Origin: Anaerolineales bacterium UBA6092
GTDB lineage: Bacteria > Chloroflexota > Anaerolineae > Anaerolineales > UBA4823
Length of the DNA stretch: 64,000 bases
Direction of reading: 5' to 3'
Assembly (NCBI GenBank): GCA_002428565.1
Contig: DIXA01000036.1
Span: forward strand, 5,321-69,320
The notes under the pieces are model-generated. The model worked only from the letters and a program-made list of their open reading frames with translations, had not been told where the DNA came from and ran no database searches. Position numbers and translations under genes: made by a program. The first letter of the stretch is position 1, and the number at the start of each line of letters is the position of its first letter. Positions 8,465 through 49,762 of this stretch are shown piece after piece.

Positions 8465-10042
8465 ATGCTCTCTCGCGTTCACTCTTGTGCAGTCATCGGC
8501 CTGGAAGGGGTCATCGTCGAGGTAGAAGTGGATACCGCTGACGGCCTGCCGGGCATCACCATCGTCGGGCTGCCGGATGCCGCCGTGCAGGAAGCGCGCG
8601 AGCGCGTCCAGGCGGCCATCAAGAACACGCATCTGCCCTACCCGCGCAAGCGCATCGTGGTCAACCTGGCCCCGGCTTCGGTGCGCAAAGAAGGCCCCAC
8701 CTACGATCTGCCCATCGCCCTGGGGGTACTGATCATGACCGGGCACATCCCGCAGGAGGCGGTGGACGGTGCGCTGGTGGTGGGCGAGCTTTCGCTGGAT
8801 GGCAGCGTGCGCCATGCGCGCGGTGTGCTGCCCATGGCAGCTACCGCCCGCCAGGAAGGCTTCCGGCGCATCTTCGTCCCCGAAGCCGATGCCGCCGAGG
8901 CGGCCCTGATCCCCGACCTGGAAGTGATCCCGGTGGCTTCGCTGGCGGGGCTGCACGCCCACCTCACCGGGACCGCCCGCATCGCCCCGCGTGACCCAAT
9001 CACCCCCGACGAACTGCCGGTCATCACGCAGACGGATTTCCGCGAGATCAAAGGGCAAGAGCACGTCAAGCGCGCCATGGAGGTGGCGGGCGCGGGTGGA
9101 CACAATATGCTCATGGTTGGCCCGCCCGGTTCAGGCAAAACGCTGCTGGCGCGGGCCATGCCGGGCATTTTGCCCAAGATGACGATTGACGAAGCCCTGG
9201 ATGTGACCCGCATCTACTCGGTGGCTGACCAACTGCCGCCGGATACCCCGCTGATCCAAAACCGCCCCTTCCGTTCCCCGCACCACACCATCAGCCACGC
9301 CGGGCTGGTGGGCGGCGGCAATCAGCCGCATCCTGGCGAGATCAGCCTGGCGCACCGCGGCGTGCTCTTTTTGGATGAGCTGCCCGAGTTTGGCATGCGT
9401 GTGCTGGAAGTGCTGCGCCAACCCATGGAAGACAAGGTGGTGACGATCAGCCGGGCGCAGGGTTCACTGACCTTCCCGGCCAATTTCCAGTTGATCGGCG
9501 CCATGAACCCCTGTCCTTGCGGTTATTTCAATGACGCCATCAAGCCCTGCACCTGCTCCTCCAGCACCGTCACCAAGTACCAGAAGCGCATCTCTGGGCC
9601 GCTGCTGGACCGCATTGATATCCACATCGAGGTGCCGCGGGTCGAATACGACAAGCTCAGCGACAGCCGTTTTGGCGAATCTTCGGCGGTGATCCAGGCG
9701 CGTGTCGAGGCGGCGCGGCAGTGCCAGCGCGAGCGTTTTTCCGTCGGGGCGAAGCATTCGCCGCATGACGCCACGCCAGACAGAACCTCTCTGGCGAATG
9801 CTTCGCCGGTACAATGCAATGCCGATATGCGCCCGGCGGAGGTGCGATCGTTCTGCGATCTGGATGATACCAGCCGCAGCCTGATGAAGACGGCGATGAA
9901 CCAGTTGCAGCTCAGTGCGCGGGCGTATCACCGGATATTGAAATTGGCGCGCACGATCGCAGATTTAGCGGGGAGTGAAACGATTGGCCCCAGCCATTTG
10001 GCGGAGGCGCTGCAGTATCGTCCGCGGGGGATGATGGGGTGA
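8465..10042 (+). CDS. comM: Mg-chelatase-like AAA+ helicase ComM/YifB
   Basis: N-terminal Lon-protease-like domain (HSCAVIGLEGVIVEVEVD). Walker A GPPGSGKT, Walker B VLFLDE, Zn-like CPCGY..C.C, and C-terminal [18 protein letters not shown]. Confidence 0.9.
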   Translation: MLSRVHSCAVIGLEGVIVEVEVDTADGLPGITIVGLPDAAVQEARERVQAAIKNTHLPYPRKRIVVNLAPASVRKEGPTYDLPIALGVLIMTGHIPQEAVDGALVVGELSLDGSVRHARGVLPMAATARQEGFRRIFVPEADAAEAALIPDLEVIPVASLAGLHAHLTGTARIAPRDPITPDELPVITQTDFREIKGQEHVKRAMEVAGAGGHNMLMVGPPGSGKTLLARAMPGILPKMTIDEALDVTRIYSVADQLPPDTPLIQNRPFRSPHHTISHAGLVGGGNQPHPGEISLAHRGVLFLDELPEFGMRVLEVLRQPMEDKVVTISRAQGSLTFPANFQLIGAMNPCPCGYFNDAIKPCTCSSSTVTKYQKRISGPLLDRIDIHIEVPRVEYDKLSDSRFGESSAVIQARVEAARQCQRERFSVGAKHSPHDATPDRTSLANASPVQCNADMRPAEVRSFCDLDDTSRSLMKTAMNQLQLSARAYHRILKLARTIADLAGSETIGPSHLAEALQYRPRGMMG

Positions 10043-10055
10043 CCCATGTGCGCCG

Positions 10056-10122
10056 CAGTATTTGATCAAAGCGATGTTCGAAAAAGATTGCGCCGCGGCG
10101 GTGTGCATGGGGTTAGGGCACC
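10056..10122 (+). repeat. short copy (S1) of the junction repeat family
   Basis: CAGTATTTGATCAAAGCGATGTTCGAAAAAGATTGCGCCGCGGCGGTGTGCATGGGG... starts 14 nt after the comM stop. It matches the right end of L1, L2 and L3. Confidence 0.7.
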
Positions 10123-10179
10123 ATAAGAGGGGGGTGTGGGCTGCTGCTATCGACAGGGTTGTCCCCTTTTTGCTTCGAT

Positions 10180-10980
10180 TTATTGCACGTGATACATTTT
10201 CCAACTGCGGCGCGGGGTGTAGCCCAATTTTAGCGCCAGGCGCATGGAGATGTCGTTGGCAGCATCCCATTGGGGCTCGAGGCCATTTTCCAGGCAGTAT
10301 TCAAGCAGGGCAACACTCAACTGCGTCCCCAGGCCCTTTTGGCGATGGCGTGGATCATCGTTATAATCCACCCGAATATACACCTCCAGGACATTGTTAC
10401 GGATAGGGTAGTTCGCGGCAGCAAAGCCAATGATTTTTTCGTCTTCCAATAGGCAGAAACCGGCCCCTTGCTGTAAAAAGTCTGCCAAGGCAAAAAACTT
10501 GCTGAGCAAATCTTGAGATAACATGCCTTGCTGATCATTGACGTGGGACGCTTCAATCGGAACTATGCGCAAGCCGGCAGGCAGCTCAGTTTTCAGGCTG
10601 CGCAGGTGCTCCAGGCTGAGTGAAGATGCATCGAAGCTGGTGCGCGGGCAGGCTTGCAGTTTTTCACCAAAATAAGCCACAAGATGGCGCTCCCATTGTT
10701 CGCTGGAGGGTACCAGCCATCGATCCGCGAGAATCAGTTCGAGCAAGGGGGTCACATCTTTGGTATCGGGGTCTCCCCACAGAAAATAGGCCGGGGGCGT
10801 ATAAAAACTGGCCAGGGTTGGTTCAATTTCCGTATCCACCCAAATTTCGGGAGTGAGAAACTCAAAGGCAAATTGGATATAGTTGGTGAAGTGTTCAAAT
10901 TGATTGAACACGGCCTGATATGTGGAGTTTTTGGCCTGCGCCACTTTAACGAACGGGGTCGGTGCTGTAATGCTCATCAT
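10180..10980 (-). CDS. GNAT family N-acetyltransferase
   Basis: The C-terminal acetyl-CoA pocket region (RRQKGLGTQL, in the Q/RxxGxG/A style) sits within a GNAT-length domain. Confidence 0.7.
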   Translation of the reverse strand: MMSITAPTPFVKVAQAKNSTYQAVFNQFEHFTNYIQFAFEFLTPEIWVDTEIEPTLASFYTPPAYFLWGDPDTKDVTPLLELILADRWLVPSSEQWERHLVAYFGEKLQACPRTSFDASSLSLEHLRSLKTELPAGLRIVPIEASHVNDQQGMLSQDLLSKFFALADFLQQGAGFCLLEDEKIIGFAAANYPIRNNVLEVYIRVDYNDDPRHRQKGLGTQLSVALLEYCLENGLEPQWDAANDISMRLALKLGYTPRRSWKMYHVQ

Positions 10981-11004
10981 TTTCTCTCTTTCTGTTAGAA
11001 CGTG

Positions 11005-13143
11005 CTAAGGTTTCAGGAGGGTGATCACTTCCGTACTGACCCAGTAGAGGTCGCCTTTGTAAACGTAAAACAGGTACTTGCCATCTGGGGAGATGGTTGC
11101 AATCGACGCGCTGGTGGGGATACCCTGGCGCTGTAAACTTTTAGGGGCGCTCCAGCCTCCATCTGCCTGGAGGAAGCGGACCCCCAGGTTGGCATTGCCA
11201 TCATCGTAGACCAGATAGCTGCCATCCGGGGCAATCGCCGGGTGGACGCCGTCGCATTGGTTTTCAAAGGCAGTAAATTGCCCATTTGCCAGTGTAACCA
11301 GGCTCAGGCTTGGCCTGCCGCTGGTGGAAAAGCTGGTGACGTAGATTTGTCCGCTTGAATCTGAGCTGACAAACATTCCCTCCCCAACATAGCGAGGCTC
11401 TGACCATCCCTCAGCGGTGCGATCTACCGCCCAAATGCCGGCATCCATGGTACTGGTTACCCCGGCAGGCGCGGGGCGGAACCAGCCAAAATAAAGGGTT
11501 TTGTTGTCGGCAGTGACGTGGGGCTCGAAGGCGGGGTAGCCAGCCGCAAAAGAAGCGGGAGCCGGGGCCGTCCAAACGCCATTGAGCAGGTGCGTCTCAT
11601 AAAGCACATTCTCTTGCCCGTCCAGGCGCCGCGTGAAATAAAGTTCTTTGCCATCCGGGGAAAAGCTGGCGGCAAACTCTGTGGCCCCTTCCATAGAGAC
11701 GATACCCGGCGCAAAGACCTGCGGTGTCAGCCCGGGTGGGGTCTGCCCCAGGTAGGCGCTCCCATTCATGCCAACATCCACTTTCATCAGGTAGATTTCA
11801 AATTGCCGGGTGAGTCGCGAACCGACCAGCAGGCAACTGCCATCATCCAGTTGCAGCCAACTGCGCAAAACATTGTGCTGTCCGGCTGGTTTAATCGTCC
11901 TTTCCCAAACCAACTGTCCACCAGCGTCTATTCTGGCGATCGAGATCAAGCCCGGCGAACGCCCAGACAGATCTTTGACCCAATCCCCAGCCGCAATATA
12001 CCCGCCGTCGGCGGTTTGGGTGACCACCATAGGGTAATCTACCATTGTGGGGTCTCCAAATTGGCTGCTCCAGACTTCATTGCCTTGCTGATCCACTTTG
12101 ATCAACAGGAAATCGACCATGGCGTGAGCCGTGTCATCGGCAGGTGCAACCGATGCGGCGATGAGATACTGGCCGTCGGCGGTGCGCAGCAGGTCAGAGG
12201 CTGAGATGGTCCCCTCTTCCCAGGTGCGCTCCCACACAATTTCACCATTCCTATCCACCTTGAGCAAGTAGGCATCGTCTCCTGGCTGCGGGAAGCGCAG
12301 GAGCGAGGCCACGACGACAAAACCGCCATCCGTTGCCTCCACGCCGCCGCTGGTCAGCAGGTTGTTCTGCCCCCCAAAGGTCTGAGACCAAACCAGGCCA
12401 CCTGCGGAGTCTACTTTGGCCAGGTAAATATTACTGCGCCCGGCATAGCCGCCATAGCCAGCCGCGCCGGGGTCGGCAACAATATCGTCAGGATCAACAA
12501 CGTTGCCCCACAGCATGAAACTGCCGTCAGCAAGGGCGCACACAGAGACCATTTCATCCAGTGTGCTGCCATAGGTGTTTGACCAGATTTCATTGCCTTG
12601 CAGGTCAACTTTGACGAGGTAGGCATCCGCGCCGCCCGCGCCAGAAGATCTGGTCATCCCGGCCAGCAGCAGGTTCCCATCGCTGGTATGGGCAATCGAG
12701 AGGCCTTCTTCGGCTTTTTCGCCGCCGTAGGTTTTCTCCCAAAGCACCTCCCCGTTTTCATCCGTGCGAATCAGGTAGATGTCGCCGCTGTTGCCTGCCC
12801 CAGACATATCCAGCCCAGCCGTGCCCACAATGTAAAAGCCGCCGTCTTCGGCCACCAGCACGTCTTCACCCATGTCGGCTGCCGTTTTGTGATAGATCCG
12901 ATCCCAGAGAATGCTCGGAATTTCGGGGGTGGGGATGGCGGTGGGTGGGAGTGTGGCAGTCGGCGGTGCGGAGGTTGCTGTGGGCGGAATCGCAGTGAGG
13001 GTCGGGGGAACTGCTGTATTGGCCGGAGGAACTGCTGTATTGGTTGGGGGAACCACTGTAGGGGTGGGGGTTGATGTCGGTGCGCAGCTGGTGAGCAGGC
13101 TCAACAAGATGACCAAAATGGCAAACTGTCTAATGTATCTCAT
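11005..13143 (-). CDS. secreted lipoprotein with beta-propeller repeats
   Basis: Lipobox LLTSC. Pro/Thr repeat linker (PTNTAVPPANTAVPPT). Repeated G..(V/I)W motifs and a TolB/PD40-like C-terminal part (SPDGK.LYF). Confidence 0.75.
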   Translation of the reverse strand: MRYIRQFAILVILLSLLTSCAPTSTPTPTVVPPTNTAVPPANTAVPPTLTAIPPTATSAPPTATLPPTAIPTPEIPSILWDRIYHKTAADMGEDVLVAEDGGFYIVGTAGLDMSGAGNSGDIYLIRTDENGEVLWEKTYGGEKAEEGLSIAHTSDGNLLLAGMTRSSGAGGADAYLVKVDLQGNEIWSNTYGSTLDEMVSVCALADGSFMLWGNVVDPDDIVADPGAAGYGGYAGRSNIYLAKVDSAGGLVWSQTFGGQNNLLTSGGVEATDGGFVVVASLLRFPQPGDDAYLLKVDRNGEIVWERTWEEGTISASDLLRTADGQYLIAASVAPADDTAHAMVDFLLIKVDQQGNEVWSSQFGDPTMVDYPMVVTQTADGGYIAAGDWVKDLSGRSPGLISIARIDAGGQLVWERTIKPAGQHNVLRSWLQLDDGSCLLVGSRLTRQFEIYLMKVDVGMNGSAYLGQTPPGLTPQVFAPGIVSMEGATEFAASFSPDGKELYFTRRLDGQENVLYETHLLNGVWTAPAPASFAAGYPAFEPHVTADNKTLYFGWFRPAPAGVTSTMDAGIWAVDRTAEGWSEPRYVGEGMFVSSDSSGQIYVTSFSTSGRPSLSLVTLANGQFTAFENQCDGVHPAIAPDGSYLVYDDGNANLGVRFLQADGGWSAPKSLQRQGIPTSASIATISPDGKYLFYVYKGDLYWVSTEVITLLKP

Positions 13144-15511
13144 GATTTCCTTTTCTCCTGATTGTTACGGCGCTGGCTGCCGGGGCGGTTGACGCAGTTG
13201 GCGCCGGCGCCCAGGTGGCCGCTGCGTCATATCCTTTGCCGTCAGTTAACGCGGTGAGCGTATCGGAGGCCAGATCGTAAACCCATAGTGTGCTTTTCGG
13301 CCAGCGATTGGAGTAAATGGAGCGGCCGGAATGGCCCGTCGAGATGAGCACTTGCTTCCCGTCCGGCGAGTATTCCAGGCCTTCCAGATATTCGGCAACT
13401 AAAGCAGTGCGCCTGAACTGGCCGGTAGATACGGTAACGAGATACAGGCTGGCATCCTGCCCATTTTTTGTCTTTCCAAAGACGGCGATCGATGTCCCAT
13501 CCGGCGACCAAACAGCAAGCTCCGGCGTGGTATCTGCTGGCAATGGGCCAACGGGGCGCGACGTGCCGTCCAGCTTCACAATCAAAACCTGCTCGGACTG
13601 TGCAGAGACAACGACAATCTCCGTCCCGTCCGGCGACCAGGCTGCCGAGAGGAGGTCGCGATATACTTCGCGGATTTCCCCGTTCGAGAGGGATAATACG
13701 TAGGCGTTATGCGCTCGGATGGACTCGTCCGGCGACACATCCTCGATCAGGATTTGCTCCCCGTTGGATGCCCATTCCACTGCACCGGCTATCCAGTCGA
13801 GTGGGAATGCTTGCTCGACGCCGCTCCCATCGCTGCGCAGGATGGTCACGACGCTGCGCTTGTCGCTTGTGCCGGCGACGGGGTGGACGGCGGCGACGGC
13901 CAGGCGCGTTCCATCGGGCGACCAGGTTGGGTCTATCCAGGGGTACGCCAACAGCGTCTCTGTGACACCCGCACTGAGTTCGATCGGCGCAGCACCATCG
14001 AGCCCCGCGCTCCAGACTTCCAGTGGACCGTGCCGGTCGCCGCTCAGGCCGTTGGGAACCACTATGTAGGCGATCCTTTGGCCGTCCGGCGACCACACCG
14101 GGCGCAGGCAGGTATCCCTTGGCTTGCCCCCCGCCAGCCAGCGTTGGTTGGAGCCATCGGCGTTCATCACATAGATCGCAGGCTTGCCATCCCGGTCGGA
14201 GAGAAAGGCGATCAGGCCGGCGCCGTTATCGCCCAGGGGCTGCGTGGTTGTCACGCTGGCGGTCGGCACCGGCGCCCAAGCGCCATGTGAGTCATATCCT
14301 TTGCCGTCGGTTAACTCGGTGAGTGTGTCGGAGGCCAGATCGTAAACCCATAGCGACCTTCTCAGCCAGCTACTGGAGTAACTGGAGCGGCCAGGATGGG
14401 CTGCCGAGACGAGCAGTTGGCTTCCGTCCGGCGAGTATTCCAGGCCGTCCAGAGATTCGGCGACCAAAGCAATGCGCCTGACCTGGCCGGTGGATACGGT
14501 AACGAGATACAGGCTGGCCTCCTGCCTATTATTTGTCGTTCCAAAGATGGCAATAGCAGTCCCATCCGGCGACCAAACGGCAAGCTCCGGCGTCGTATCT
14601 GCTGGCAATGGGCCAACGGGGCGCGATGTGCCGTCCAGCTTCACAATCAAAACCTGCTCGGACTGTGCAGAGACAACGACAATCTCCATCCCATCCGGCG
14701 ACCAGGCCGCCGAGAGTAGGTCGCGATATACTTCGCGGATTTCCCCGTTCGAGAGGGATAATACGTAGGCGTTATGCGCTCGGATGGACTCGTCCGGCGA
14801 CATATCCTCGATCAGGATTTGCTCCCCGTTGGATGCCCATTCCACTGCACCGGCTATCCAGTCGAGTGGGAATGCTTGCTCGACGCCGCTCCCATCGCTG
14901 CGCAGGATGGTCACGACGCTGCGCTTGTCGCTTGTGCCGGCGACGGGGTGGACGGCGGCGACGGCCAGGCGCGTTCCATCGGGCGACCAGGTTGGGTCTA
15001 TCCAGGGGTACGCCAGCAGCGTCTCTGTGACACCCGCACTGAGTTCAACCGGCGCAGCGCCATCGAACCCCACGCTCCAGACTTCCAGCGGACCGTGCAG
15101 GTCGCTCAGGCCGTTGGGAACCACCATGTAGGCGATCCTTTGGCCGTCCGGCGACCACACCGGGGGCAGGCAGACACCCCTTGTCTTCCCTTCCGCCAGC
15201 CGGCGTTGGTTGGAGCCATCGGCGTTCATCACATAGATCGCAGGCTTACCATCCCGGTCAGAGAGAAAGGCGATCAGGCCGGCACTGTTATCGCCGAGAG
15301 GCGGTGTGGCTGTCACGCTGGCGGTCGGCGCCGGCGTGGCCGTGGCCGTGGGCGTAGCCGTAGCCGTGGCCACGATAGGCTGGCTGGTAGGGGTGGGCAA
15401 AACGTTGGGCGCCGTGGCGGTGGATGTGGGCGCAGGGTCTGCTTTACTGCAACCAGTCACGATCATCCCTATCAGTAATATGATGAGCATTGTTCGCAAT
15501 CGATTTGGCAT
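13130..15511 (-). CDS. PD40/TolB-like beta-propeller lipoprotein containing an internal 355-aa tandem duplication
   Basis: Lipobox IVTGC. DGKPAIYVMNADGSNQR and WSPDG repeats. The two halves are near-identical. Confidence 0.8.
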   Translation of the reverse strand: MPNRLRTMLIILLIGMIVTGCSKADPAPTSTATAPNVLPTPTSQPIVATATATPTATATPAPTASVTATPPLGDNSAGLIAFLSDRDGKPAIYVMNADGSNQRRLAEGKTRGVCLPPVWSPDGQRIAYMVVPNGLSDLHGPLEVWSVGFDGAAPVELSAGVTETLLAYPWIDPTWSPDGTRLAVAAVHPVAGTSDKRSVVTILRSDGSGVEQAFPLDWIAGAVEWASNGEQILIEDMSPDESIRAHNAYVLSLSNGEIREVYRDLLSAAWSPDGMEIVVVSAQSEQVLIVKLDGTSRPVGPLPADTTPELAVWSPDGTAIAIFGTTNNRQEASLYLVTVSTGQVRRIALVAESLDGLEYSPDGSQLLVSAAHPGRSSYSSSWLRRSLWVYDLASDTLTELTDGKGYDSHGAWAPVPTASVTTTQPLGDNGAGLIAFLSDRDGKPAIYVMNADGSNQRWLAGGKPRDTCLRPVWSPDGQRIAYIVVPNGLSGDRHGPLEVWSAGLDGAAPIELSAGVTETLLAYPWIDPTWSPDGTRLAVAAVHPVAGTSDKRSVVTILRSDGSGVEQAFPLDWIAGAVEWASNGEQILIEDVSPDESIRAHNAYVLSLSNGEIREVYRDLLSAAWSPDGTEIVVVSAQSEQVLIVKLDGTSRPVGPLPADTTPELAVWSPDGTSIAVFGKTKNGQDASLYLVTVSTGQFRRTALVAEYLEGLEYSPDGKQVLISTGHSGRSIYSNRWPKSTLWVYDLASDTLTALTDGKGYDAAATWAPAPTASTAPAASAVTIRRKGNHEIH
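13226..15333. repeat. 2 x ~1065-bp direct tandem repeat inside the CDS
   Basis: The sequence at about 13226-14268 recurs at about 14291-15333. For example, the spurious ORFs starting at 13709 and 14774 are 1065 nt apart and begin with identical peptides. Long stretches are identical. Confidence 0.85.
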
Positions 15512-15523
15512 TTCCTGTCTCCT

Positions 15524-21088: not shown

Positions 21089-21107
21089 GTGAATGCATTA
21101 TGCCCTT

Positions 21108-40539: not shown

Positions 40540-43407
40540 ATGAAACTCACGAAAATTATCGCAACACTGGTCATCGGCGCGGCGCTGGCGGTCGTCTGGC
40601 TGCTGGGGTTCAGCCCAACCTCAGCGGCCCAGGCAGATGCTATTACAAGCGTAGGCATCGATATAACCACCACAGTAGACGAATTCGGCGAAAACCTTAC
40701 CGCATGTTCCCTGCGCGAGGCTATCTATACTCTGAATACAGGTACAAACTTTGGCGGGTGTATCAATCCAATCATCCACCAAATTAACCTTCCAGCAGGC
40801 ACCTATATTCTCACCATCGCCGGCAGCGGCGAAGAAAACACTGCCCAGGGCGACCTGGATATTAAGGTTTCTATGACGATTGTGGGCGCCGGACCCAATG
40901 TCACAATCATCGATGGAGGCAAGTTAGACCGAGTCTTCGATATCCATGGCGCAACTGGCGAGGTCACCCTGGAGGGAATACGCATCAGAAATGGCGTGGT
41001 TACAGGCAATGGCGGCGGAATTGCCGCCGACACTGCAGACTTGACCTTACTGAACACGATTGTGTTTTCCAATACGGCTTCTGCCAACGGTGGCGGGATC
41101 TACGCTCTGACTACCTTCCTGGCGATGACCAACACACGCGTAGCCGCAAATGATGCCGTCAACTTCGGCGGGGGCATCATGCTCGGCGCCGACGATGCCA
41201 ATCTGCTGCGCATGGGGGTCAACTGCGTGGTGGCACAAAATACCGCCGACCATGGCGGCGGCATCTTTATCGCCGGTGGACAAATGTACCAGGAAGCCGG
41301 CCTGATCACGGAAAACACAGCCGACGAGAACGGCGGCGGAATTGCAGTGATGGGCGGCGATGCCCACCTGTTGGGCGGCGTCGTGCTCGATAACAGCGCC
41401 TTTAGCGGCGGCGGGGTATGGGTCAACAATGGAAGCGCACTCCTGAGCGGAACGATGCTGATCGACAATTCCGCCCTTGAAGGTGGCGGCCTGTTCACAC
41501 TGGGCAACCAATCGGTCGTCACCCAAACAGCCGCCAGCAGCATCATCAGTAACACCGCGCTGGGCGGCGGCGGTATCATGCATCTTGCCGGGCTTTTCAC
41601 TTTACAAGGCGGGGAGATCATCAGCAACACAGCCGGCAGTGCTGGCGGGGGAATCGCTGTATTTGGAGGCAACGTCAGCCTGAGCGAGGGGAGCATACGG
41701 AACAATTCTGCAGACCGCGGTGGCGGTGTTTACATCAGCGGTGGTGGAACCATCACAGCCACCCATATGCAGATCACGGACAATACAGCCACGAGCAGCT
41801 ACGGAGGCGGTATCTTTGCGCAGGCTTACGATGTAAAATCGGCTAGCTCCACAACTCCCAATGCTCTATCCCCATACCTTACCATCATCGGTGGAGAGAT
41901 CGCGGGAAATGAAGCTTCTTACGGCGGCGGCATCAGCGTTCGGCAAGGCATGGTGGCGTTGCTTGAAGATGTGCTGGTGCACGATAACCTGGCATCCAAC
42001 AATGGGGGCGGCATCAATGTCTCCAACCCGGATGCAGAATTACATGCCATCGGCTGCCAGATCACCGGAAATGATGCCTACCTGGGCGGCGGGCTCTTTG
42101 TCAACAACAGCCTGGCTTTCATCACCAACACGCTGATCGCCAGCAACACCGCGGTGGAGGATGGCGGCGGGGTCTACATGGCGCAAGCCATGTTGGGCCT
42201 GACCAATCTTACCCTGGACGGCAACCAGGCTTTCTCAGAAGGCGGCGGACTCTACCTCTACGGCGATACTAAATCTCCCACTGAAACCGCTCTCGGCATG
42301 CACTTCTCTACCATCACAGACAACGCGTCCGATAGTGGCGGAGATGGCATTCATCTCGTCGGGAGCATCACCACCCTTGTGCTGCAAAACAACATCCTGG
42401 CTGGCAATGGCACAGCCAACTGCAACACGGCCCTGGCCTCGGGCGGGTACAACATCGACAGCGGCACAACTTGCGGCTTCACTGCCGCAGGCGACCAATC
42501 CGATACTGACCCGCTGCTCGATGCGCTGGCAGATAACGGCGGCAATACGCTGACGCACGCCCTGCTGCCCGGCAGCCCCGCCATTGATACTGGGCTGTGT
42601 ATATCAGATGTCGATACAGATCAGCGCGGTGAGCCGCGCCCTAACCCGGTCAGCGCTGCCTGTGATATTGGCGCTTACGAGTCGAGCCTGCTCGGCGCAG
42701 CCGACTTGAGCATCCTGCAGACGGTTTCGCCTGCCAGCGCGCTGCCCGGCGAGAACCTGATCTACACCATTGCGTTTTCCAACACCGGGCCAGCCTGGGG
42801 TATGGGCGTGGTGATCAGCGAGGCTTTCCCTTCAGAATTAACCCTGTTGAGCGTCACCAGCACGGTCAATCTCACCGACGTTACAGATGCACAAGGCCTG
42901 GCCTGGGAAGTGGAGGGTCTCGAACCGGGGCAAGCGGGGTTCATCACTTTGACCGCGCAAGTCGGTGACGAAAATGTTCCTGCCGGTGCGTTGATCATCA
43001 CAGCCACCATCAACGGTGCGACGACGGACACACAGCCAGAGAATAACATTGCCGCCGCCAGTGTGGAAATCCTCAACGCCGCGCCGCTGGCGCAGGACCA
43101 GGCTTACACTGTCGATTTGAACACAACCCTGGTTGTGCAGGCCAGCGACGGCCTGTTGAGCACCGCCAGCGACCCCAACGGCGACACGCTGAGCGCCATC
43201 CTGGATACAGGCCCGCTGACCGGCACGCTGACACTCAACGCGGACGGCTCGTTCACCTACGTTCCCGTGGAAGGCTTCACTGGTGTGATCACCTTCACCT
43301 ACTACATCAGCGACGGTGCGCTGGATTCCAACCTGGCGACGGTGAGCATCACGGTCGAGCAGAGCCTGGTGCAGGTGTATTTGCCCACCGTGGTGCGCAA
43401 GCCATAA
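40540..43407 (+). CDS. secreted parallel-beta-helix repeat protein with DUF11-like and Ig/cadherin-like C-terminal domains
   Basis: Signal peptide and a CSLREAI motif. More than 15 GGGI/GGGV-containing beta-helix turns. LSILQTVSP...Y.I...N.G (DUF11-like) and PNGDTLS (Ig-like) motifs. Confidence 0.8.
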   Translation: MKLTKIIATLVIGAALAVVWLLGFSPTSAAQADAITSVGIDITTTVDEFGENLTACSLREAIYTLNTGTNFGGCINPIIHQINLPAGTYILTIAGSGEENTAQGDLDIKVSMTIVGAGPNVTIIDGGKLDRVFDIHGATGEVTLEGIRIRNGVVTGNGGGIAADTADLTLLNTIVFSNTASANGGGIYALTTFLAMTNTRVAANDAVNFGGGIMLGADDANLLRMGVNCVVAQNTADHGGGIFIAGGQMYQEAGLITENTADENGGGIAVMGGDAHLLGGVVLDNSAFSGGGVWVNNGSALLSGTMLIDNSALEGGGLFTLGNQSVVTQTAASSIISNTALGGGGIMHLAGLFTLQGGEIISNTAGSAGGGIAVFGGNVSLSEGSIRNNSADRGGGVYISGGGTITATHMQITDNTATSSYGGGIFAQAYDVKSASSTTPNALSPYLTIIGGEIAGNEASYGGGISVRQGMVALLEDVLVHDNLASNNGGGINVSNPDAELHAIGCQITGNDAYLGGGLFVNNSLAFITNTLIASNTAVEDGGGVYMAQAMLGLTNLTLDGNQAFSEGGGLYLYGDTKSPTETALGMHFSTITDNASDSGGDGIHLVGSITTLVLQNNILAGNGTANCNTALASGGYNIDSGTTCGFTAAGDQSDTDPLLDALADNGGNTLTHALLPGSPAIDTGLCISDVDTDQRGEPRPNPVSAACDIGAYESSLLGAADLSILQTVSPASALPGENLIYTIAFSNTGPAWGMGVVISEAFPSELTLLSVTSTVNLTDVTDAQGLAWEVEGLEPGQAGFITLTAQVGDENVPAGALIITATINGATTDTQPENNIAAASVEILNAAPLAQDQAYTVDLNTTLVVQASDGLLSTASDPNGDTLSAILDTGPLTGTLTLNADGSFTYVPVEGFTGVITFTYYISDGALDSNLATVSITVEQSLVQVYLPTVVRKP

Positions 43408-43430
43408 CCTATCAACCCGGCAATACCCAT

Positions 43431-43464
43431 CCCGCCCCTCTCTGAGGGGTAAGAGAGGGGCGGG
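43431..43464 (+). terminator. hairpin terminator after the beta-helix gene
   Basis: CCCGCCCCTCTCT-GAGGGGTA-AGAGAGGGGCGGG, a 13-bp perfect stem with a weak U-tract. Confidence 0.5.
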
Positions 43465-43870
43465 GAACACATAAAGTTCTTTGCGCTCGATCGCTTTGGG
43501 CTTGGGAGTGATCTCCCCGGCTGCGCTGCTGATTCTGATCGCACTGGTAGGGCTGCGGCGTTTGAACAAGGATACAGACCCGCCTCAGGCGACGTGATCT
43601 AAAAAGAGTGGGGAGTTGTTGCGCTTGGCTTTTGCGGGTGCCATCGCGTGGGGGCATGCACCATTTCCAGCCTTGCCGCGGTGCTGTACAAGGACTGCCT
43701 GCCTCCCCGGTTGCCCAAATCCTTCATCGATTCTACAATACTCCTTCACGGCTTCTTCATAACGGCGAGATATCATTTGGTTTGTAAGCAGGGTGAGCCA
43801 TCTCACCCAAAACAGAAAAACCTCAAGATCAAAACAGACCGTTATAAAACGGAAAAAAGGAGAAAAGAAA

Positions 43871-44644
43871 ATGTTCAAGAAAATTCTAACCACCACAGCG
43901 CTGATCGCCGTTCTTGGCGTGCTCGTCTTTGGCGCGGTCACTTCTGCACAGGCCAAGGCCCCCGATGGCGGCAATGGCCCTACGAATGGACAGTCTGTTC
44001 CCAGTGCGCAGACAGATGGCATATATGGCAGCGGCCGCGGTCAGGGCACTGGCAGCCTGGGCACCTTGCCCCCCGCCACCGGCGACCTGAGCGCCGAAGA
44101 AGCCGCGGCGCTGACCTTCATGCGCGAAGAAGAAAAGTTGGCCCATGATGTGTATGTAACGCTCTACGAGCAGTGGGGCTTGCCCGTCTTCATCAACATC
44201 AGCCAAAGCGAGCAGGCTCACAGCGATGCTGTCAAGGCTTTGCTGGATCGCTACGGTCTGGCTGACCCAGCCACGGGCACTGTGGGTGTGTTCACTGATC
44301 CCGAACTGCAGGCGCTCTACACCGAGTTGGTGGCGCTGGGCAGCCAGTCAGTGGCAGGCGCGCTCAAAGTGGGCGCGGCGATCGAAGAGATCGATATCCT
44401 CGATCTGCAAGAGCGCCTGGCCCAGACCGACAACGCCGACCTGCAGCAGGTGTTCAACAACTTGCTGAACGGCTCCTACAGTCACTTGCGCGCCTTCGTC
44501 TCCACCTTGCAGACTCAGACTGGTGAAGCCTATCAGCCGCAGTACCTCAGCCTTGAGGCCTACCAGGCGATCATCAGCGCCAGCGCAGGCAGCGGCAATG
44601 GTGCCGGCAGCAACCGGGGCGGTGGGCGCAGCGGCAGGCCGTAA
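43871..44644 (+). CDS. secreted DUF2202 (ferritin-like) protein
   Basis: The start is at ATG 43871 (AAGGAG upstream), followed by a signal peptide. Motifs LTFMREEEKLAHDVY and SEQAHSDAVKALLDRYG are present. Confidence 0.75.
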   Translation: MFKKILTTTALIAVLGVLVFGAVTSAQAKAPDGGNGPTNGQSVPSAQTDGIYGSGRGQGTGSLGTLPPATGDLSAEEAAALTFMREEEKLAHDVYVTLYEQWGLPVFINISQSEQAHSDAVKALLDRYGLADPATGTVGVFTDPELQALYTELVALGSQSVAGALKVGAAIEEIDILDLQERLAQTDNADLQQVFNNLLNGSYSHLRAFVSTLQTQTGEAYQPQYLSLEAYQAIISASAGSGNGAGSNRGGGRSGRP

Positions 44645-44659
44645 CCCTTTCCCTGTTCA

Positions 44660-44701
44660 AAAAAAGAGAGGAACGTGCAAACGCACGGTTCCTCTCTTTT
44701 T
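44660..44701. terminator. bidirectional intrinsic terminator
   Basis: AAAAAAGAGAGGAACGTGC-AAAC-GCACGGTTCCTCTCTTTTT. Confidence 0.7.
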
Positions 44702-44796
44702 CATTCCTGTACGATGCCTGCTTTCAAGCAGAAGGGTAGGGGCATATAGACAAGGTTACTCGCTTATTCCTCCACTGTTACACTGACCCTCCACTC

Positions 44797-44872
44797 GCCC
44801 CCGCAGGTGGGGGTGTTTGCTAGTTTTAGCCTTGCATTGACTGTATATTGTGTTCCCTTGAGAGTAGTTCGC
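44797..44872 (+). repeat. partial copy (P4) of the junction repeat family
   Basis: CGCCCCCGCAGGTGGGGGT...TATATTGTGTTCCCTTGAGAGTAGTTCGCC matches the L3 core. It breaks off before the 45-nt box. Confidence 0.7.
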
Positions 44873-45154
44873 CGGGCACCTGCTGTACTTCCTTTTCCTG
44901 TCCAACCTGGGCACTACGGTGTATCTGCCACGCGGCCAGTTTGATCAAGCCCTGGCCACCGCCCACAGCCGGCGCTGGATGAACTGAGGGGGGCAACCTG
45001 GAAACCGCGCTGCCCCTCTTTACCCAGGAGCGCAGCGTGGTAGGAGCCACTGGCGATTAGGGCCGAGGTGCGGAGATGAGCATGAGCTGTTACCACTGCC
45101 TGGCCCCTTGCCTGCTGGATACGGAATGTGGGGGGATGGGGCAGTGAGCACTCC

Positions 45155-48100
45155 TTAGCGTTTCAACGCCAGCGGCAAATAAACCCTCAGGTTCTCCACC
45201 GTTACGGTGCTGGTCAGCGCCAGGTGCCCCAGCGGATTGCCAATGGATAGCGTCACGGTATACACGCCTGCCTGTGCGTAGGCGTGGCTGGTGATCAGGT
45301 CGCTGCTGGTGGCGCTGCCATCGCCGAAGTTCCAGGTCAGAGTGGGGGTGGGCACCCCGGCGCTGATGGTGGCGGTGAAGACCACCGTTTCGCCCACATG
45401 CGCTGTGGTGGCCGATTGGGTGAAGCTGCCGGCGGGCGGCGTGCCGCAGACCGCCGGCCGGGGAAACAGCGCCAGCCCGCGCGGCCCGCCTTCCAACTGG
45501 ATGGAACTGACCACCTGCCCCGCGGCCGTATCCACCGCCCGCACCATGTATACATACGGCATACTGACATACACCAGCCCCTCGTCCGGCCAGGGGAAGA
45601 CGGCCACATCCCAGGCCATGCCATTTCCCATGCTTGCCCCCACCGTAATCTGGTCAGTGACCTCCCCGGTCTGCGTATCCACCACGTACAGCAGCCCCAA
45701 GGCCGGGTCGGTCGCATAAAGGGTCAGTCCGTCTGGTGAAACCTCTAGGTTTGCCATCGAGCCGTTGTTATCGCTGCCGGGCAGGTTCATCGTCCAGGTG
45801 TAGACCATGGTGTCGCTGGCGGTATCGATCACCACTACATCCATGTTAAGCACACTGCTGACGTAGGCGCGGTCGCCCAGCGGTGAGATGGCCATGCCCC
45901 AGGGGTGGTCCAGCCCGGCGGTGATGACCGCCGTCACACTGAAAGTAGTTCCGTCCAGCACGCTCACCGAGTTGGCATCTTTGCTGACGATGTAGATCTT
46001 GTCCAGGCAGGGGCTGGTCTCCACGCTGATGGGGCCGTCCTCCAGCCCGGTGATCACCTGCGTCACCGTCAGCGCGGCCGTGTCGATCACGCTCAGGCTG
46101 TCATCGTCGTGGTTGACCACGAAGGCCCGGCTGCCATCGGGCGAGAGGGCGATCTCGTAGGGGCGCGCCCCCACCGGGATCAGCGTGGACGTGTACGCGG
46201 CGGTCAGATCGATCACCGCCACCTGGCCCGTATCCCGCAGGCTGGCATACAGGGTTTTGCTATCGGCTGAGAGCACGCCGCGCCACGCCCAACTGCCTGT
46301 GGGCATCTGGATGTATTCGCCGGTGGGCTGGTGCAAGATCGTATCCATCACCCAGATGCGGTCCGAGTCAGGATCGAACGCATAACCCGGCCGCGCCACT
46401 GCGGCCACCACCGCGGCGCTGGTGGCCAGGCCGCCGGTTGGGTCGGCTGCCTCCACAGTGAACGCGTCGTGGTCGCCCATGGCTGCCCCGGTGGGGAAGG
46501 TCACCGTCACCGTGAAGGGAAAACTCTCCCACGGCCCCAGCAAGCCGGTGCTGCTGCTGGAAAGCGCCGCCGGCCACTCGGCCCCTGCCAGGCTCAGACC
46601 GATGGTGCGGGTCTCTGTGCTGGCGTTGCTCACCCGCAAGAGATAATCTACCGTCTCCCCGGCTGCGCCGTACTGCACCTGCTCTCCCGGCGTCAGTGTG
46701 ATCTCTGCCAGGCAGGTGCTGGGCCTGGGGAAGTAAGCCAGCCCGTTGATCCGCACGCCCACGTCCAGCGCTCCGACCACCGTGTGCGTTTGGGTGTTGA
46801 TCGTGATCACCTGGTTTTCCTGCTCTTCGGCCAAATAAGCATACGGCCCGTAACCGGCCGGCGCAAATTCCACATCGGTGATGCCGCTGTAATACAGGTT
46901 CAGGGCGATGGTGTGCAGCAGTTCACCGCTCAGGGCATCCAGCACGCTCACCGACGTGCTCCCATCCGCTACATACAGCAGCCGCCCGTCCGGTGAAATA
47001 TCGATCTGCTTTACCCACCCGCCAGCTGGCCAGCGATACAGCACTTCGTTCGTGTTGGTATCGATCACCGCCACTCTATCTTGGGTTCCCTCGACAACAT
47101 ACACATACTGCCCGTTGGGCGAAACTGCCAGATCAAACAGCCAGGCCACACCGGCAATCACATCGGTGACGGTCAGCGCGGCGGTGTCGATCACGTAGAC
47201 TTCCCCGCTGTACTGGGATGCCACGTAGGCCAGTTCCCGGCAGGGGTGTGCAGCAACCGCGTATGGATGGTCGCCGGTGCTCAGTGTGGCCACCACTGTT
47301 TGGGTGGCTGTATCGATGATCGAGGTGTTATCCGAGTTTCTGTTTGCTACCACCACCAACTCGCCGTCGTACGTGATGGCCAACCCATTGGGCGACGATC
47401 CAACGGGGATGGTATTCTTGACCGTGTTCGTTGCCGTATCGATCACCGCCACGGTGCCCGCCGCCCCCAGGCTGGCGTACAATGTTTCGCCGGAGGGGCT
47501 GAGGGCGCCCTGGAGCGGCCGCGACATGGATGGGAAGTAGATCCACCCGGTAATGATGTTCAACTGCCGGTCGAGGCGCACGATCTGCTCGGCGTAGTTG
47601 GCCATCACGAAGCCGTAATCGCCGGATGTCGCCGTGGTGTGGATGATGGCCTGGTTGTAGTACACGGTGGGGCTGAGGCTGGAGGTGACCTCCAGGGTGA
47701 CCTCGTCAAAATCGCCCGGCTGCGCCGCCAGCGGCACCGTCACCGTCACCACCGCTGTCTCGCTCTCGCCTGGGTTCAGGCTGCCCGTTTGAACAGCCGA
47801 GATTGCCGATGGCCAATCCGCCCCATCCAGCGCCAGGTCAAACGTGCCGGTGATGCCTGTGTCATTCAAGATCGTGAACTCGTACGGGATGGCTTGCCCA
47901 GCCACGCCAAACCCTTCTGGAAAGCCGGGCGTTACGTAGACATTGGGGGCCAGGTTGCCTGCCAGGTAATCAATGGCATTGGGCAGCAGTTCCTTTCCAG
48001 AGATTGCTTCGGCATAAAGATATTCCACCGGCTGCCCAAAAGCGACCACTTGCCCGGTTCCCCACGGATACTCGATCGTGGTCGCCGGCCCGCCTGGGGC

Positions 48101-48652
48101 GTTCCCCCCACTGATGATCACGCTCATCCCGGCCACGCTGCCGCTGAACGCTGCCCGGGCATTGGGGGTAAACGGATTTGAAAGGCCCGTTGCCAGTGGG
48201 TGAGACGTTTGGTTGATCCAATTCCACGAGTTGTACGAGTTGTAGATCGTGATCCCGCCCGGCAGGGTCAGGCCATCAAAGTCGCCGTACCAGCCGCCGG
48301 CGTGAAATTCCAGGTATCCGCCGGCCTGCACATAGGACTCAAAGCGATCGGCATTGGCTGCGTAAGCATTGTAAAAGGCATTGGATTGTTGGCCCGCTAT
48401 GATCACCGCGGGGTAGGCGCTTAGATCGATGGTGCCCATCTGATCCGAACTGGCAATATCATACAGCAATCCCTCGGCGCTCAACAGATCTTCGATGCTG
48501 CCCGTTCCAAACGGTCGCCCATCCATCAGCAGCAGCACCTGCCCCGCCGTGGGGGCGCGCTGCGGCGCCTGCGCGGCTGCGTCCATACCCGCCGCACCCG
48601 CCAGCGCCAAAATGCATACCCCAACCACCATACAGAAGAATGCCTGTTTCAT
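45155..48652 (-). CDS. giant secreted protein: GATase1-like N-domain, multiple YVTN-type beta-propellers, C-terminal PKD domain
   Basis: The start was set at ATG 48652 (MKQAFFCMVV... signal peptide). Repeated motifs of the form P.G.A.SPDG..LYV....VSVIDT. The C-terminal PKD-like block is TWNFGDGS. Confidence 0.8.
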   Translation of the reverse strand: MKQAFFCMVVGVCILALAGAAGMDAAAQAPQRAPTAGQVLLLMDGRPFGTGSIEDLLSAEGLLYDIASSDQMGTIDLSAYPAVIIAGQQSNAFYNAYAANADRFESYVQAGGYLEFHAGGWYGDFDGLTLPGGITIYNSYNSWNWINQTSHPLATGLSNPFTPNARAAFSGSVAGMSVIISGGNAPGGPATTIEYPWGTGQVVAFGQPVEYLYAEAISGKELLPNAIDYLAGNLAPNVYVTPGFPEGFGVAGQAIPYEFTILNDTGITGTFDLALDGADWPSAISAVQTGSLNPGESETAVVTVTVPLAAQPGDFDEVTLEVTSSLSPTVYYNQAIIHTTATSGDYGFVMANYAEQIVRLDRQLNIITGWIYFPSMSRPLQGALSPSGETLYASLGAAGTVAVIDTATNTVKNTIPVGSSPNGLAITYDGELVVVANRNSDNTSIIDTATQTVVATLSTGDHPYAVAAHPCRELAYVASQYSGEVYVIDTAALTVTDVIAGVAWLFDLAVSPNGQYVYVVEGTQDRVAVIDTNTNEVLYRWPAGGWVKQIDISPDGRLLYVADGSTSVSVLDALSGELLHTIALNLYYSGITDVEFAPAGYGPYAYLAEEQENQVITINTQTHTVVGALDVGVRINGLAYFPRPSTCLAEITLTPGEQVQYGAAGETVDYLLRVSNASTETRTIGLSLAGAEWPAALSSSSTGLLGPWESFPFTVTVTFPTGAAMGDHDAFTVEAADPTGGLATSAAVVAAVARPGYAFDPDSDRIWVMDTILHQPTGEYIQMPTGSWAWRGVLSADSKTLYASLRDTGQVAVIDLTAAYTSTLIPVGARPYEIALSPDGSRAFVVNHDDDSLSVIDTAALTVTQVITGLEDGPISVETSPCLDKIYIVSKDANSVSVLDGTTFSVTAVITAGLDHPWGMAISPLGDRAYVSSVLNMDVVVIDTASDTMVYTWTMNLPGSDNNGSMANLEVSPDGLTLYATDPALGLLYVVDTQTGEVTDQITVGASMGNGMAWDVAVFPWPDEGLVYVSMPYVYMVRAVDTAAGQVVSSIQLEGGPRGLALFPRPAVCGTPPAGSFTQSATTAHVGETVVFTATISAGVPTPTLTWNFGDGSATSSDLITSHAYAQAGVYTVTLSIGNPLGHLALTSTVTVENLRVYLPLALKR

Positions 48653-48900
48653 TGCCGCCTCCTTAATATTTTTGTTGTTTGTCCTGACCCTATAGAACCA
48701 TCGGTGTTGGCCGCAGTTTACCTGATCTGCAAAACCTGTTAGCAAGACAATGCACCGTGAGGCTGCGATGGATGATCGTTTCGCTGATGATGCTGGAATT
48801 ATGCCACAAAAAAGCAGATTGAGCGTTTAAACCGCCGACCGGGCGAAGTCGCCTGGCTAGAGGTTTTTTGGCGACATCTACCACCACACAAACTACCCAC

Positions 48901-49024
48901 GCGCCCCCGCAGTTGGGGGTTTGTTCTAGTTTCAGTCTTGCTGAAGCTATATATTGTGTTCCCTTGGGAGTAGTTCGCCAAAGTGACGTTCGAAAAAGAT
49001 AGGACCGCGGCACTGTGGGTGGGG
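48901..49024 (+). repeat. copy L3 (core only) of the junction repeat family
   Basis: GCGCCCCCGCAGTTGGGGG...GAGTAGTTCGCCAAAGTGACGTTCGAAAAAGATAGGACCGCGGCACTGTGGGTGGGG. It has the same order as L1 and L2, but its left arm is unrelated. Confidence 0.75.
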
Positions 49025-49118
49025 AATGTTCCGTGGAGGAGAGTGTGTTGCAGTGCCACGCGGCACATCCCGCCGTTTCCCTAGTTTCCTGCCAGTGGAT
49101 TGAATACATAAATCCAAA

Positions 49119-49200
49119 GGCGCTCTATAATCTTATCTGTGTACCCAACAAACTTGCCTCTCTCACCGCCGCCCTCACCGAGAACCTCACCTTGTGTGTA
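49119..49200 (+). repeat. conserved junction linker, copy 2
   Basis: GGCGCTCTATAATCTTATCTGTGTACCC...CTCACCGAGAACCTCACCTTGTGTGTATC matches 21397-21478. Confidence 0.7.
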
Positions 49201-49762
49201 TCCCTGCCCTTGCGGTTATTTCAATGATGCCATCAAACCCTGCACCTGCTCCTCCAGCACCGTCACCAAGTACCAGGAGCATCGTTCTGGGATGCCCGCA
49301 TCTCTGGCCCGCTGCTGGACCGCATTGACATCCACATCGAGGTGCCGCGCGTCGAATACGAAAAACTGAGCGACAGCCGTTTTAGCGAATCTTCGGCTAC
49401 CATCCAGGCGAGGGTGGAGGCGGCGCGGCAACGCCAGCGCGAACGTTTTGCCGTCGGGGCGAAGCATTCGCCGCATGACGCCGCGACAGACAGAACCTCT
49501 CTGGCGAATGTTTCGCCCGTACAGTGTAATGCCGACATGCGCCCGGCGGAGGTGCGAGCGTTCTGCAACCTGGACGACACCAGCCGCAGCCTGATGAAGA
49601 CGGCCATGAACCAATTACAGCTCAGCGCGCGGGCGTATCACCGCATATTGAAGCTGGCGCGGATTGGCGCGGACGATTGCAGATTTAGCGGGGAGTGAGA
49701 CGATCGGGCCGAGTCACCTGGCGGAGGCGCTGCAGTATCGTCCGCGGGGGATGATGGGGTAG
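49201..49762 (+). pseudogene. comM: comM 3'-end remnant (copy 3)
   Basis: Same left breakpoint as copy 2. It has an insertion of about 22 nt after ...TKYQ and a 10-nt duplication (GATTGGCGCG) near the end, so the frame is broken. It ends at TAG 49760-49762. No S-type repeat follows. Confidence 0.85.

Follow-up and report, generated by a model that had tools for sequence, protein, structure and literature searches.

How could about 40 kb of cargo come to lie among copies of a single gene end, all of them opening at the same nucleotide, when no recombinase is in sight? This question is raised by the comM locus of Anaerolineales bacterium UBA6092 (GCA_002428565.1, contig DIXA01000036.1), of which we analyzed positions 5,321–69,320 of the forward strand; this stretch of 64,000 nt is called the window throughout. 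In it, an intact comM gene is followed by two remnants of its own 3′ end, and a sequence-only reading of the locus had proposed two integrations of elements at a single comM site, with each element supplying a replacement 3′ end and pushing the old one outward. Our results place the locus in what appears to be an island family widespread in Anaerolineae, targeted to one site in comM, the NPCPCG codons. We give about even weight to the view that the 40 kb consists of tandemly stacked, non-autonomous islands, resembling cis-mobilizable elements (CIMEs) or satellites, that were placed by a recombinase acting in trans and were then reshuffled by homologous recombination.

Two spare comM 3′ ends open at one nucleotide

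The live comM gene (8465–10042, + strand) appears in the list of open reading frames (ORFs) as an intact frame of 525 aa. Pfam recognized all three ComM/YifB domains in it (ChlI, Mg_chelatase AAA+ and Mg_chelatase_C; E = 1.8e-94), and the protein is 69–88% identical to homologues in Anaerolineales metagenome-assembled genomes, the nearest being 88% identical. Self-BLAST and alignment showed that the last 534 nt of the gene (codons 349–525; 9509–10042, + strand) recur twice downstream in the same orientation. Both remnants open at one comM nucleotide, CCCTGYCCTTGCGG at comM nt 1045, in the codons of NPCPCG; the shared junction point is thus the NPCPCG-coding core CCCTGTCCTTGCGG at the segment start, 9509. 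The E-values of these matches (1e-59 to 0) exclude chance, and the claim that the last ~530 nt of comM recur twice from one nucleotide was confirmed.

Remnant 2 (21480–21934, + strand) is 96% identical to the live gene and has a 95-nt deletion (equivalent to 9646–9740), on either side of which it aligns at 96.4% (9509–9645 with 21480–21616) and 95.9% (9741–10057 with 21618–21934). Its final 182 nt (21746–21927) are identical to live comM 9869–10050. Remnant 3, the outermost (49202–49762, + strand), aligns at 86.6% over 559 columns (9509–10040 with 49202–49760), contains a 17-nt insertion and a 10-nt duplication, and ends in a TAG stop of its own, differing from live comM, after which unrelated sequence leads into a pfaD-like/polyketide synthase cluster. 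The deletion and the duplication had been described correctly from the sequence, whereas the insertion had been put at ~22 nt.

As had also been noticed, a common linker that is absent from comM precedes each remnant. Linker 2 (21389–21479, + strand), which ends in ...CTCACATTGTGTGTAT, directly abuts remnant 2, and linker 3 (49111–49201, + strand) abuts remnant 3; the two are ~90 nt long and ~84% identical, and we refer to this part as the right-end motif. Ahead of the linkers lie copies of L, a repeat of ~290 nt, namely L1 (21099–21397, + strand, non-coding) and L3 (48870–49045, + strand, followed by a spacer of ~60 nt up to 49110). A short repeat, S, which is homologous to the 3′ part of L, stands just 3′ of the comM stop codon (S1, 10052–10133, + strand) and 3′ of remnant 2 (S2, 22008–22060, + strand) and does not follow remnant 3, in agreement with the first description.

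That description had L before both remnants, which is correct, and in two copies only, whereas the window holds four (L1, L2, Lp and L3). L2 (36693–36991, + strand) is 87% identical to L1, has a tail resembling that of S1, and has no linker or remnant behind it; Lp (44764–44873, + strand) is a partial copy, likewise with no remnant. L2 is probably the boundary of a further module whose remnant has been lost. From the bare copies at 36693 and 44764, as many as four modules may have accreted, so the two insertions first proposed are probably an undercount. We also considered what L itself might be. Stop codons in every frame and the lack of third-position bias ruled out a gene, and a structured RNA was rejected because L plus linker gave fold z-scores of −1.39 and +1.30 (no significant hairpin) and no Rfam family.

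The same junction recurs in other genomes and metagenomes

Is the junction peculiar to one contig? We analyzed 80 species-representative genomes with comM relatives (69–80% aa identity), a set not chosen by junction pattern, together with metagenome loci retrieved by a degenerate junction pattern, which matched at least 120 stretches, 80 of which were taken for analysis; loci are cited by L numbers of three digits. In five of the 80 genomes, a second comM 3′ fragment lies within 10 kb downstream of an intact comM. The fragments of three other Anaerolineales species (L001, L003 and L069, with ComM proteins 70–80% identical to that of the window) start within 3 nt of the window's comM position, behind islands of 0.76, 1.6 and 7 kb, respectively; even the 0.76-kb island has perfect ends. 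Among the 80 metagenome loci, ~68 are true junctions, with unrelated DNA joined to a comM fragment beginning at aa 346–349, and ~10 are ordinary comM genes from other phyla. At least 10 metagenome loci carry two or more comM copies, and a live comM together with a remnant is present in L001, L003, L069, L092 and L110. In four species genomes (the window included) and ~68 metagenome contigs, the insertion point thus falls no more than 3 nt from comM nt 1045. Repeated entry at one comM site with a replacement 3′ end is borne out by this shared junction and by the synonymous differences described below.

A phage origin was rejected: a search of 2.9 million viral contigs gave no match to the junction motifs or the L motifs, and the comM fragments that do occur in viral contigs sit at other codons. 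A shallow literature search found no description of this Anaerolineae island family.

A conserved motif with a sharp outer end abuts the junction

What do islands with such different contents share? Directly 5′ of the junction we found a motif of ~70 nt, (GA)TAAGCCTTCAAAATCAC…TCCNTTANTGAGCAYGAAAAATATGTCCGATTGTGTRYAY/CCCTG, where the slash marks the junction; it has the terminal consensus ...ATTGTGTRYAY and spans ~70–90 nt over the family. Ungapped pairwise identity is 0.46–0.60 from −70 to −10 and drops to the random level of 0.25 past −70, which gives the motif a sharp end. A profile of the motif gave 51 matches over all the loci analyzed, and all 51 are directly followed by the comM core. 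The junction of L156 (at 11974), which was found independently of the search pattern, has the main-type motif. Linker 2 of the window has homologues in the linkers of L092 and L147, and these represent a diverged variant of the main type, a third variant being found in L001, L003, L093, L122 and L141. Rfam gave no family at the main-type linkers.

Two other roles for the linker were considered and rejected. It could have been the promoter and start of a second comM copy, of which the remnant would be the internally deleted rest; the comM promoters (TTGACA-17-TAAACT) are unrelated to the linker. The remnants could also have been expressed as mini-genes from an in-frame ATG (…AAT ATG TCC GAT TGT GTG TAT/CCC). 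About half of the junctions have this ATG, and having it shows no relation to the intactness of the ORF (~30 of 75 remnants are intact); we read it as part of a motif that acts at the DNA level.

The window-type linker has two further features. Its terminal core is nearly repeated within it (GATTTGTGTATCCGAT at about −70 versus CATTGTGTGTATCCCTG at the junction), and this inner copy could be a second protein-binding site; the linker also holds a TATAAT box.

Live and spare gene ends differ mainly at synonymous sites

If the spare ends had been copied in place and had then decayed, their differences from the live gene would not be expected to lie mostly at silent positions. The rates of nonsynonymous (dN) and synonymous (dS) change between live and spare ends were 0.094 and 0.99 in L092, 0.037 and 0.75 in L069, and 0.02 and 0.28 in L001; for the live gene of the window and remnant 2, they were 0.01–0.02 and 0.12–0.14 (dN/dS 0.07–0.15). 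Overall, the ratio (omega) is 0.05–0.15, so the differences are mainly synonymous, which indicates that both copies evolved as functional ends in separate lineages. From these substitution patterns, the spare ends are imported functional gene ends and not local duplications.

The remnants also inform on the junction itself. Those standing beside similar motifs differ from one another as much as live comM genes of different species do, third codon positions included, and this host-like divergence holds from the first 60 nt onward, with no gradient of similarity. A conserved motif joined to remnants that are host-like from the first base is the pattern expected of a mobile end abutting host-type DNA. 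Furthermore, the identity of only 75–87% between live and spare ends makes a single crossover within the repeat implausible.

One island is present or absent between natural haplotypes

Short-read assemblies break at repeats of this kind, and the doubt could be raised that the remnants are assembly duplications. A metagenome contig of the Joint Genome Institute, TOLCLC_10004475 (149 kb), is 100% identical to window positions 12490–33326 (20.8 kb), a match that covers island A, L1, the linker, remnant 2 and island B; because it reproduces the arrangement around remnant 2 exactly, this arrangement is not an artefact of one assembly. The breaks in short-read assemblies fall inside the repeats, as they should with real ones: the L082 contig ends 8 nt past the comM stop, and Logan contigs end in the remnants.

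A second contig, k141_322393 of ERZ27315036 in the European Nucleotide Archive (L210, 106 kb), carries island A, L1, linker 2, a single remnant and then pfaD. It is without exactly 27,833 bp, which we call island 2, and joins window positions 14875–21743 to about 49576–61519 through a hybrid remnant. In a four-way alignment and by BLAST, this hybrid is remnant-2-like, the 95-nt deletion included, up to …GGATGAC and remnant-3-like from …GGCCATG. The crossover interval is a 26-nt identical stretch, ACCAGCCGCAGCCTGATGAAGACGGC, with its flanks (21743–21771, + strand; partner at about 49576–49604), ~265 nt inside the remnant. Because the crossover lies inside the remnant, the 27,833-bp polymorphism is a homologous event and not one at the core of an attachment (att) site. 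A misjoin at the assembly k-mer of 141 is unlikely because remnants 2 and 3 share no exact match longer than 61 nt. Island 2 is therefore present or absent between natural haplotypes through homologous recombination of comM copies. The event may have been a deletion from the window haplotype or an insertion into the short one; a single-event scenario favors insertion, but the coincidence of intervals described next has a probability of roughly 10% by chance.

It is in the same 26-nt interval that remnant 2 goes from about 92–96% to 100% identity with live comM. The 182-nt identity had been reported correctly and ascribed to a very recent event or gene conversion; it is better explained by homologous exchange between copies, given that the crossover of the recombinant haplotype falls in the same interval. 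The empty site that had been sought, with comM directly adjacent to the pfaD cluster, was found in part: a haplotype without island 2 exists, and no fully empty comM–pfaD site was found. In the 80 species genomes, no gene that flanks the locus in the window is syntenic with comM.

Other loci show the same kind of patchwork. The remnant of L147 is a mosaic, in which the linker and a foreign 5′ part are followed, from a switch at comM nt ~1360, by a 3′ end and downstream region that match the live end of L092 at 99% identity. L136 and L149 have cargo that is 98.8% identical in the 500 nt upstream, with six mismatches, all in the last 35 nt of the linker; they diverge from −35 in the linker, and their remnants are only 70% identical.

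No recombinase was detected in the islands

Pfam detected no integrase, transposase, resolvase or Tn7-like protein in the window (40/50 largest non-overlapping ORFs, the scan taking in every ORF of at least 140 aa), and no tyrosine recombinase lies within 8.4 kb upstream of comM or elsewhere in the window. The islands of L003, L069 and L070 are likewise without a recombinase, their cargo consisting of STAND/WD40 proteins, a beta-lactamase, a cupin and a FAD enzyme. With XerD, lambda Int and gamma-delta resolvase as phmmer seeds, the 10-kb surroundings of comM in the 80 genomes gave no match, and neither did any ORF of the 80 metagenome loci; the same screen did detect large serine recombinases in viral loci, which served as a positive control. 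The Pfam families of 124 cargo ORFs (TPR/STAND regulators, ABC transporters, LuxR, AbiEii, beta-lactamases, esterases and two-component systems) include no integrase among those matched by two or more ORFs, and no protein family, large or small, is common to the junction-adjacent positions across loci. In all, ~45 islands with varied cargo contain no detectable recombinase, genome regions elsewhere not having been searched, and the earlier remark that no recombinase is visible held for the window and its relatives alike.

Several less obvious candidates were pursued. An Xis-like small ORF beside the L092 linker has no NCBIfam match, and no small ORF is conserved across loci. The unannotated ORFs of the window (7510–8166, 304–1458, 21927–22349 and others), taken as possible hidden recombinases, have no Pfam or NCBIfam match. 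The idea of a defence island was dropped, since PADLOC gave nothing convincing, cargo A included.

What placed the islands?

Could a recombinase encoded elsewhere have stacked the islands at comM? We suppose that each island would consist of a left part, the 177-codon replacement comM 3′ end that keeps the gene intact, a middle part of variable cargo and, at its right end, the conserved motif. After integration, the displaced gene end would sit downstream as a remnant joined to the right-end motif. Primary integration would be site-specific and performed by a recombinase, from a helper element or the chromosome, that recognizes the motif and the comM core; since no island encodes one, it must act in trans. 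In a second tier, homologous exchange among the stacked comM ends, as found for island 2, would delete, insert and shuffle modules, and further remnants would have been removed by exchange of S with its counterpart in L, leaving L2 and Lp bare. In favor of the first tier is the joining of an element end to functional comM at a fixed nucleotide despite a 3′-end identity of 75–87%, which is a signature of site-specific recombination.

The closest known analogue is the array of ssrA islands in Dehalococcoides, which belongs to the same phylum, Chloroflexota. These islands are arranged in tandem, are bounded by repeats of the target 3′ end and have a conserved motif beside each repeat (McMurdie et al. 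2011, PMC3146451). Fifteen of them are without an integration module and were interpreted by the authors as cis-mobilizable elements (PMC3146451); the concept of accretion is that of Pavlovic et al. 2004, as cited in PMC3146451. The two systems are alike in having tandem islands downstream of one conserved gene, non-autonomous members and an element-borne conserved motif immediately 5′ of each target-end repeat. On the other hand, the target here is a protein gene that is hit mid-gene, the repeat is 534 nt long (the functional C-terminal third) instead of 20 bp, and the motif is ~70 nt instead of 15 bp. The turnover that we observed at comM is also homologous and not at the att core.

Several results weigh against a recombinase supplied in trans. 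About half of the ssrA islands carry a recombinase, often of a CcrB-like serine type at the left edge, compared with none of ~45 here, and the surroundings of comM yielded none either. The hallmarks of CIME-type elements are present in so far as the target-end repeats have the same orientation, the insertion point is identical and the conserved sequence resembles an att arm, and yet the cognate recombinase was found neither in the window or related islands nor, by phmmer, in 160 loci. The screen itself is imperfect, relying as it does on three phmmer seeds and on a Pfam summary of only 25 families, and for this reason a rare integrase-bearing member is possible. All three informative recent breakpoints (the window remnant, L147 and L136/L149) lie away from the junction core, and none of these events took place at the presumed att core. 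The junction pattern fixes 8 of the last 10 linker bases, so the metagenome set was pre-selected for that part of the motif. Lastly, in a concordance test, the live 3′ end was closer to relatives than remnant 3. The old gene end had been expected to be pushed to the outermost position; comparison with relatives did not bear out remnant 3 as the native end and points, if anything, the opposite way.

Can the data be explained without any such enzyme? The linker–comM junction may have arisen once or rarely, with islands since spreading and turning over by RecA-type recombination only. The comM gene would then be the left homology arm and the linker with truncated comM the right one, with modules exchanged by double crossover, or looped out as circles and re-integrated by the Campbell route, the DNA being supplied by transformation or other transfer. 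We regard this recombinase-free docking of islands as unlikely overall, although it is the most serious competitor. It accounts for the empty recombinase screens of the ~45 islands and of the comM neighborhood, for the natural 27.8-kb polymorphism with its crossover in a 26-nt identical stretch inside the remnants, for mosaic remnants, which it predicts (such as L147 with its L092-type 3′ part at 99%), for the cargo of L136 and L149 that is shared to −35 of the linker and divergent beyond, and for the concordance of the live 3′ end, rather than a remnant, with relatives. It does not easily account for the linker, which, if neutral, should lack block-wise conservation with an abrupt stop at −70, given that the hosts compared are near saturation at the synonymous sites of comM. 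Nor does the junction-proximal part of the remnants show the excess similarity that a hitch-hiking gradient would leave. In addition, the intact-frame remnants of L092 and L069 (75% identical, omega about 0.09) were functional until recently and, consequently, were joined to the linker recently and at the same nucleotide, which calls for a crossover in the first few conserved bases or for a site-specific event.

Alternatively, each island may once have had a tyrosine or serine integrase that has since been deleted, the array now being immobile except for homologous deletions. Such an origin has precedents at comM, in the integrase-bearing elements reported at the orthologous comM site in Gammaproteobacteria (PMC4774983) and in viral contigs with large serine recombinase genes next to comM fragments whose first residue is aa 212, 280 or 328, and L2 and Lp look like eroded boundaries. 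We nevertheless consider decay of formerly autonomous elements improbable, as none of the ~45 islands keeps an integrase or a recognizable fragment of one, L is non-coding with no codon-position signal, the 0.76-kb L001 island still has perfect ends, the junction motifs are without a match in the viral contigs, and the recurrent recent displacement of functional gene ends argues for ongoing mobility.

An assembly artefact or a simple local duplication of the comM 3′ end, which the breaking of short-read assemblies at these repeats might suggest, is very improbable. The copies differ by 4–13% plus indels, the independent contig TOLCLC_10004475 is 100% identical over remnant 2 and both its flanks, which also answers the assembly objection raised with the first reading, the same architecture is found in other species, and the omega values of 0.05–0.15 exclude in-situ copying followed by decay. 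Tn7-like transposition of the AbaR/Tn6022 type, an analogy drawn from the sequence, has comM as its target gene in common with the locus and nothing else, and it can be set aside almost entirely, since the window has no TnsA/B/C or TniQ-type genes, no inverted repeat pairs and no inverted terminal repeats or short target duplication, and comM is not disrupted and is kept intact with a 534-nt replacement end.

Comparison with other elements at comM and elsewhere

Conserved coding motifs are also targeted, and the gene end is restored, by the dusA-, trmE-, yicC- and guaA-specific islands (PMC4482086, PMC8409611). Those islands have their own tyrosine integrase by the att site and replace a short segment, whereas the comM islands replace 177 codons and have no integrase. 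In Gammaproteobacteria, integrase-bearing elements are reported to insert in comM at a conserved site (Croucher et al. 2016, PMC4774983). These elements, AbaR/Tn6022 and serine-recombinase prophages share with our islands the comM target and a conserved site reused across genera, but they split comM and carry their own enzymes, while the islands described here are cargo-only and leave comM intact. Their insertion positions also differ, being aa 212, 280, 328 or the Acinetobacter site as opposed to aa 349 here. A large serine recombinase beside a comM fragment was found in viral loci L083, L086 and L088 and is absent from the window and the Anaerolineae loci examined.

A second comM site is at aa 212, immediately ahead of the Walker A codons; it is seen in L070 (14502–15390) and in viral L084, L085 and L087 (about 9590–10459). 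L070, from Anaerolineales, has an intact comM 8.3 kb upstream of the aa-212 fragment, and its island is without a recombinase. In L085 and L087, a large minus-strand ORF (609 and 515 aa) stands beside the fragment, positioned like the serine recombinases of L083 and L086, and had no match in the recombinase screen. Another viral contig, L089 (IMGVR_UViG_3300029288_005871, 82 kb), encodes at 9827–10399 a 190-aa mini ComM-like protein that keeps the C-x-C…C-x-C cluster and the C-terminal domain and is 22% identical to the C-terminus of the window's ComM.

Integron cassette arrays and attC clusters also consist of recombinase-free cargo units, each with a recombination-site-like end, stacked at one chromosomal platform. 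In contrast to integrons, no intI lies beside the comM platform, a 534-nt gene fragment belongs to the repeated unit, no significant hairpin is formed by L and the linker (z −1.4 and +1.3), and the units hold several genes and reach about 15 kb. Tests of membership among Tn7-like elements, integrons and serine-recombinase prophages all fail. Xer-dependent integrating elements (IMEX) enter at a dif-like attachment site through the host XerC/D recombinases; the target of the present islands is within comM and not at a terminus site.

Contents and surroundings of the modules

Cargo A (10134–21098) encodes two GNAT acetyltransferases, three beta-propeller/WD40 proteins and a MalT/LuxR-type regulator by Pfam. 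Cargo B (22061–36692), from Pfam and the gene calls in L216, has an LMWPc/ArsC-like protein, SurE, a hydrolase, an MFS transporter, a GntR regulator and asparaginase II, together with an Opp-type ABC transporter and two S51 peptidases. Pfam assigned to cargo C (36992–44763) a BTAD-AAA-TPR (STAND-type) regulator, a DUF11/cadherin-like surface protein and a DUF2202 protein, and to cargo D (44874–48869) a 1196-aa beta-propeller/PKD protein.

STAND-type NTPase/TPR or WD40 regulators (MalT/LuxR, BTAD-AAA-TPR and nSTAND1-WD40) are a recurrent cargo of comM islands and often lie beside the right end. They occur in the window (18121–20772 and 37039–40131), in L069 (13501–18480), in L070 (8616–12260) and in L096, L103, L109 and L144; PADLOC did not class the two of the window as defence. 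Cargo A also contains a tandem duplication of ~1.07 kb (92% identical, 13194–15336) in the adjacent PD40 beta-propeller genes at 11005–13143 and 13130–15511, at which short-read contigs break or begin (L210 begins at 14875).

The right flank (49885–63904) is a polyunsaturated fatty acid/polyketide-type cluster with a pfaD-like enoyl reductase, a phosphopantetheinyl transferase and a 2692-aa KS-AT-ACP-KR-DH multidomain synthase, as well as genes for biotin carboxylase, biotin carboxyl carrier protein and carboxyltransferase. The synthase contains an internal 218-nt repeat (54909–55126 and 58497–58714). The sole Rfam matches in the window are two tandem c-di-GMP-I riboswitch aptamers (− strand, 4663–4782 and 4960–5064; 57.5 and 36.4 bits), located upstream of the comM region. 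They are unrelated to L and lie around small unannotated ORFs (4527–4922 and 4923–5201), with a 54-nt repeat family at 4727–5062. There are no tRNA genes in the window.

Implications

Islands stacked at the end of a conserved gene are already well known. What is unusual here is a large family, with more than 100 environmental instances, in which none of ~45 examined members has a recombinase. The family is defined by a fixed nucleotide in a protein gene, a 177-codon replacement end, a signature motif of ~70 nt and the gain or loss of 27.8 kb documented in nature. The linker–comM junction is, accordingly, a searchable marker for accessory gene flow in Anaerolineae, which are abundant yet poorly cultivated. 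The locus is also a test case for the movement of non-autonomous islands, by a helper recombinase or by homologous recombination alone, and for whether mobile DNA can target a competence gene while preserving it.

Might comM serve these bacteria as a platform for gene capture, with no recombinase encoded by the islands? We put this forward tentatively, as a possibility that is less than probable. In one form, a recombinase encoded elsewhere may recognize the ~70-nt linker and the NPCPCG core, as in an integron with an unlinked integrase. In the other, truncated comM and the linker may act as portable homology, such that modules of 0.8–28 kb are captured, stacked and lost by homologous recombination only. 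In other bacteria, the ComM helicase drives the integration of transforming DNA (PMC4774983). If the gene-capture platform is true, its site would be the gene of the very helicase that performs this task in those bacteria.

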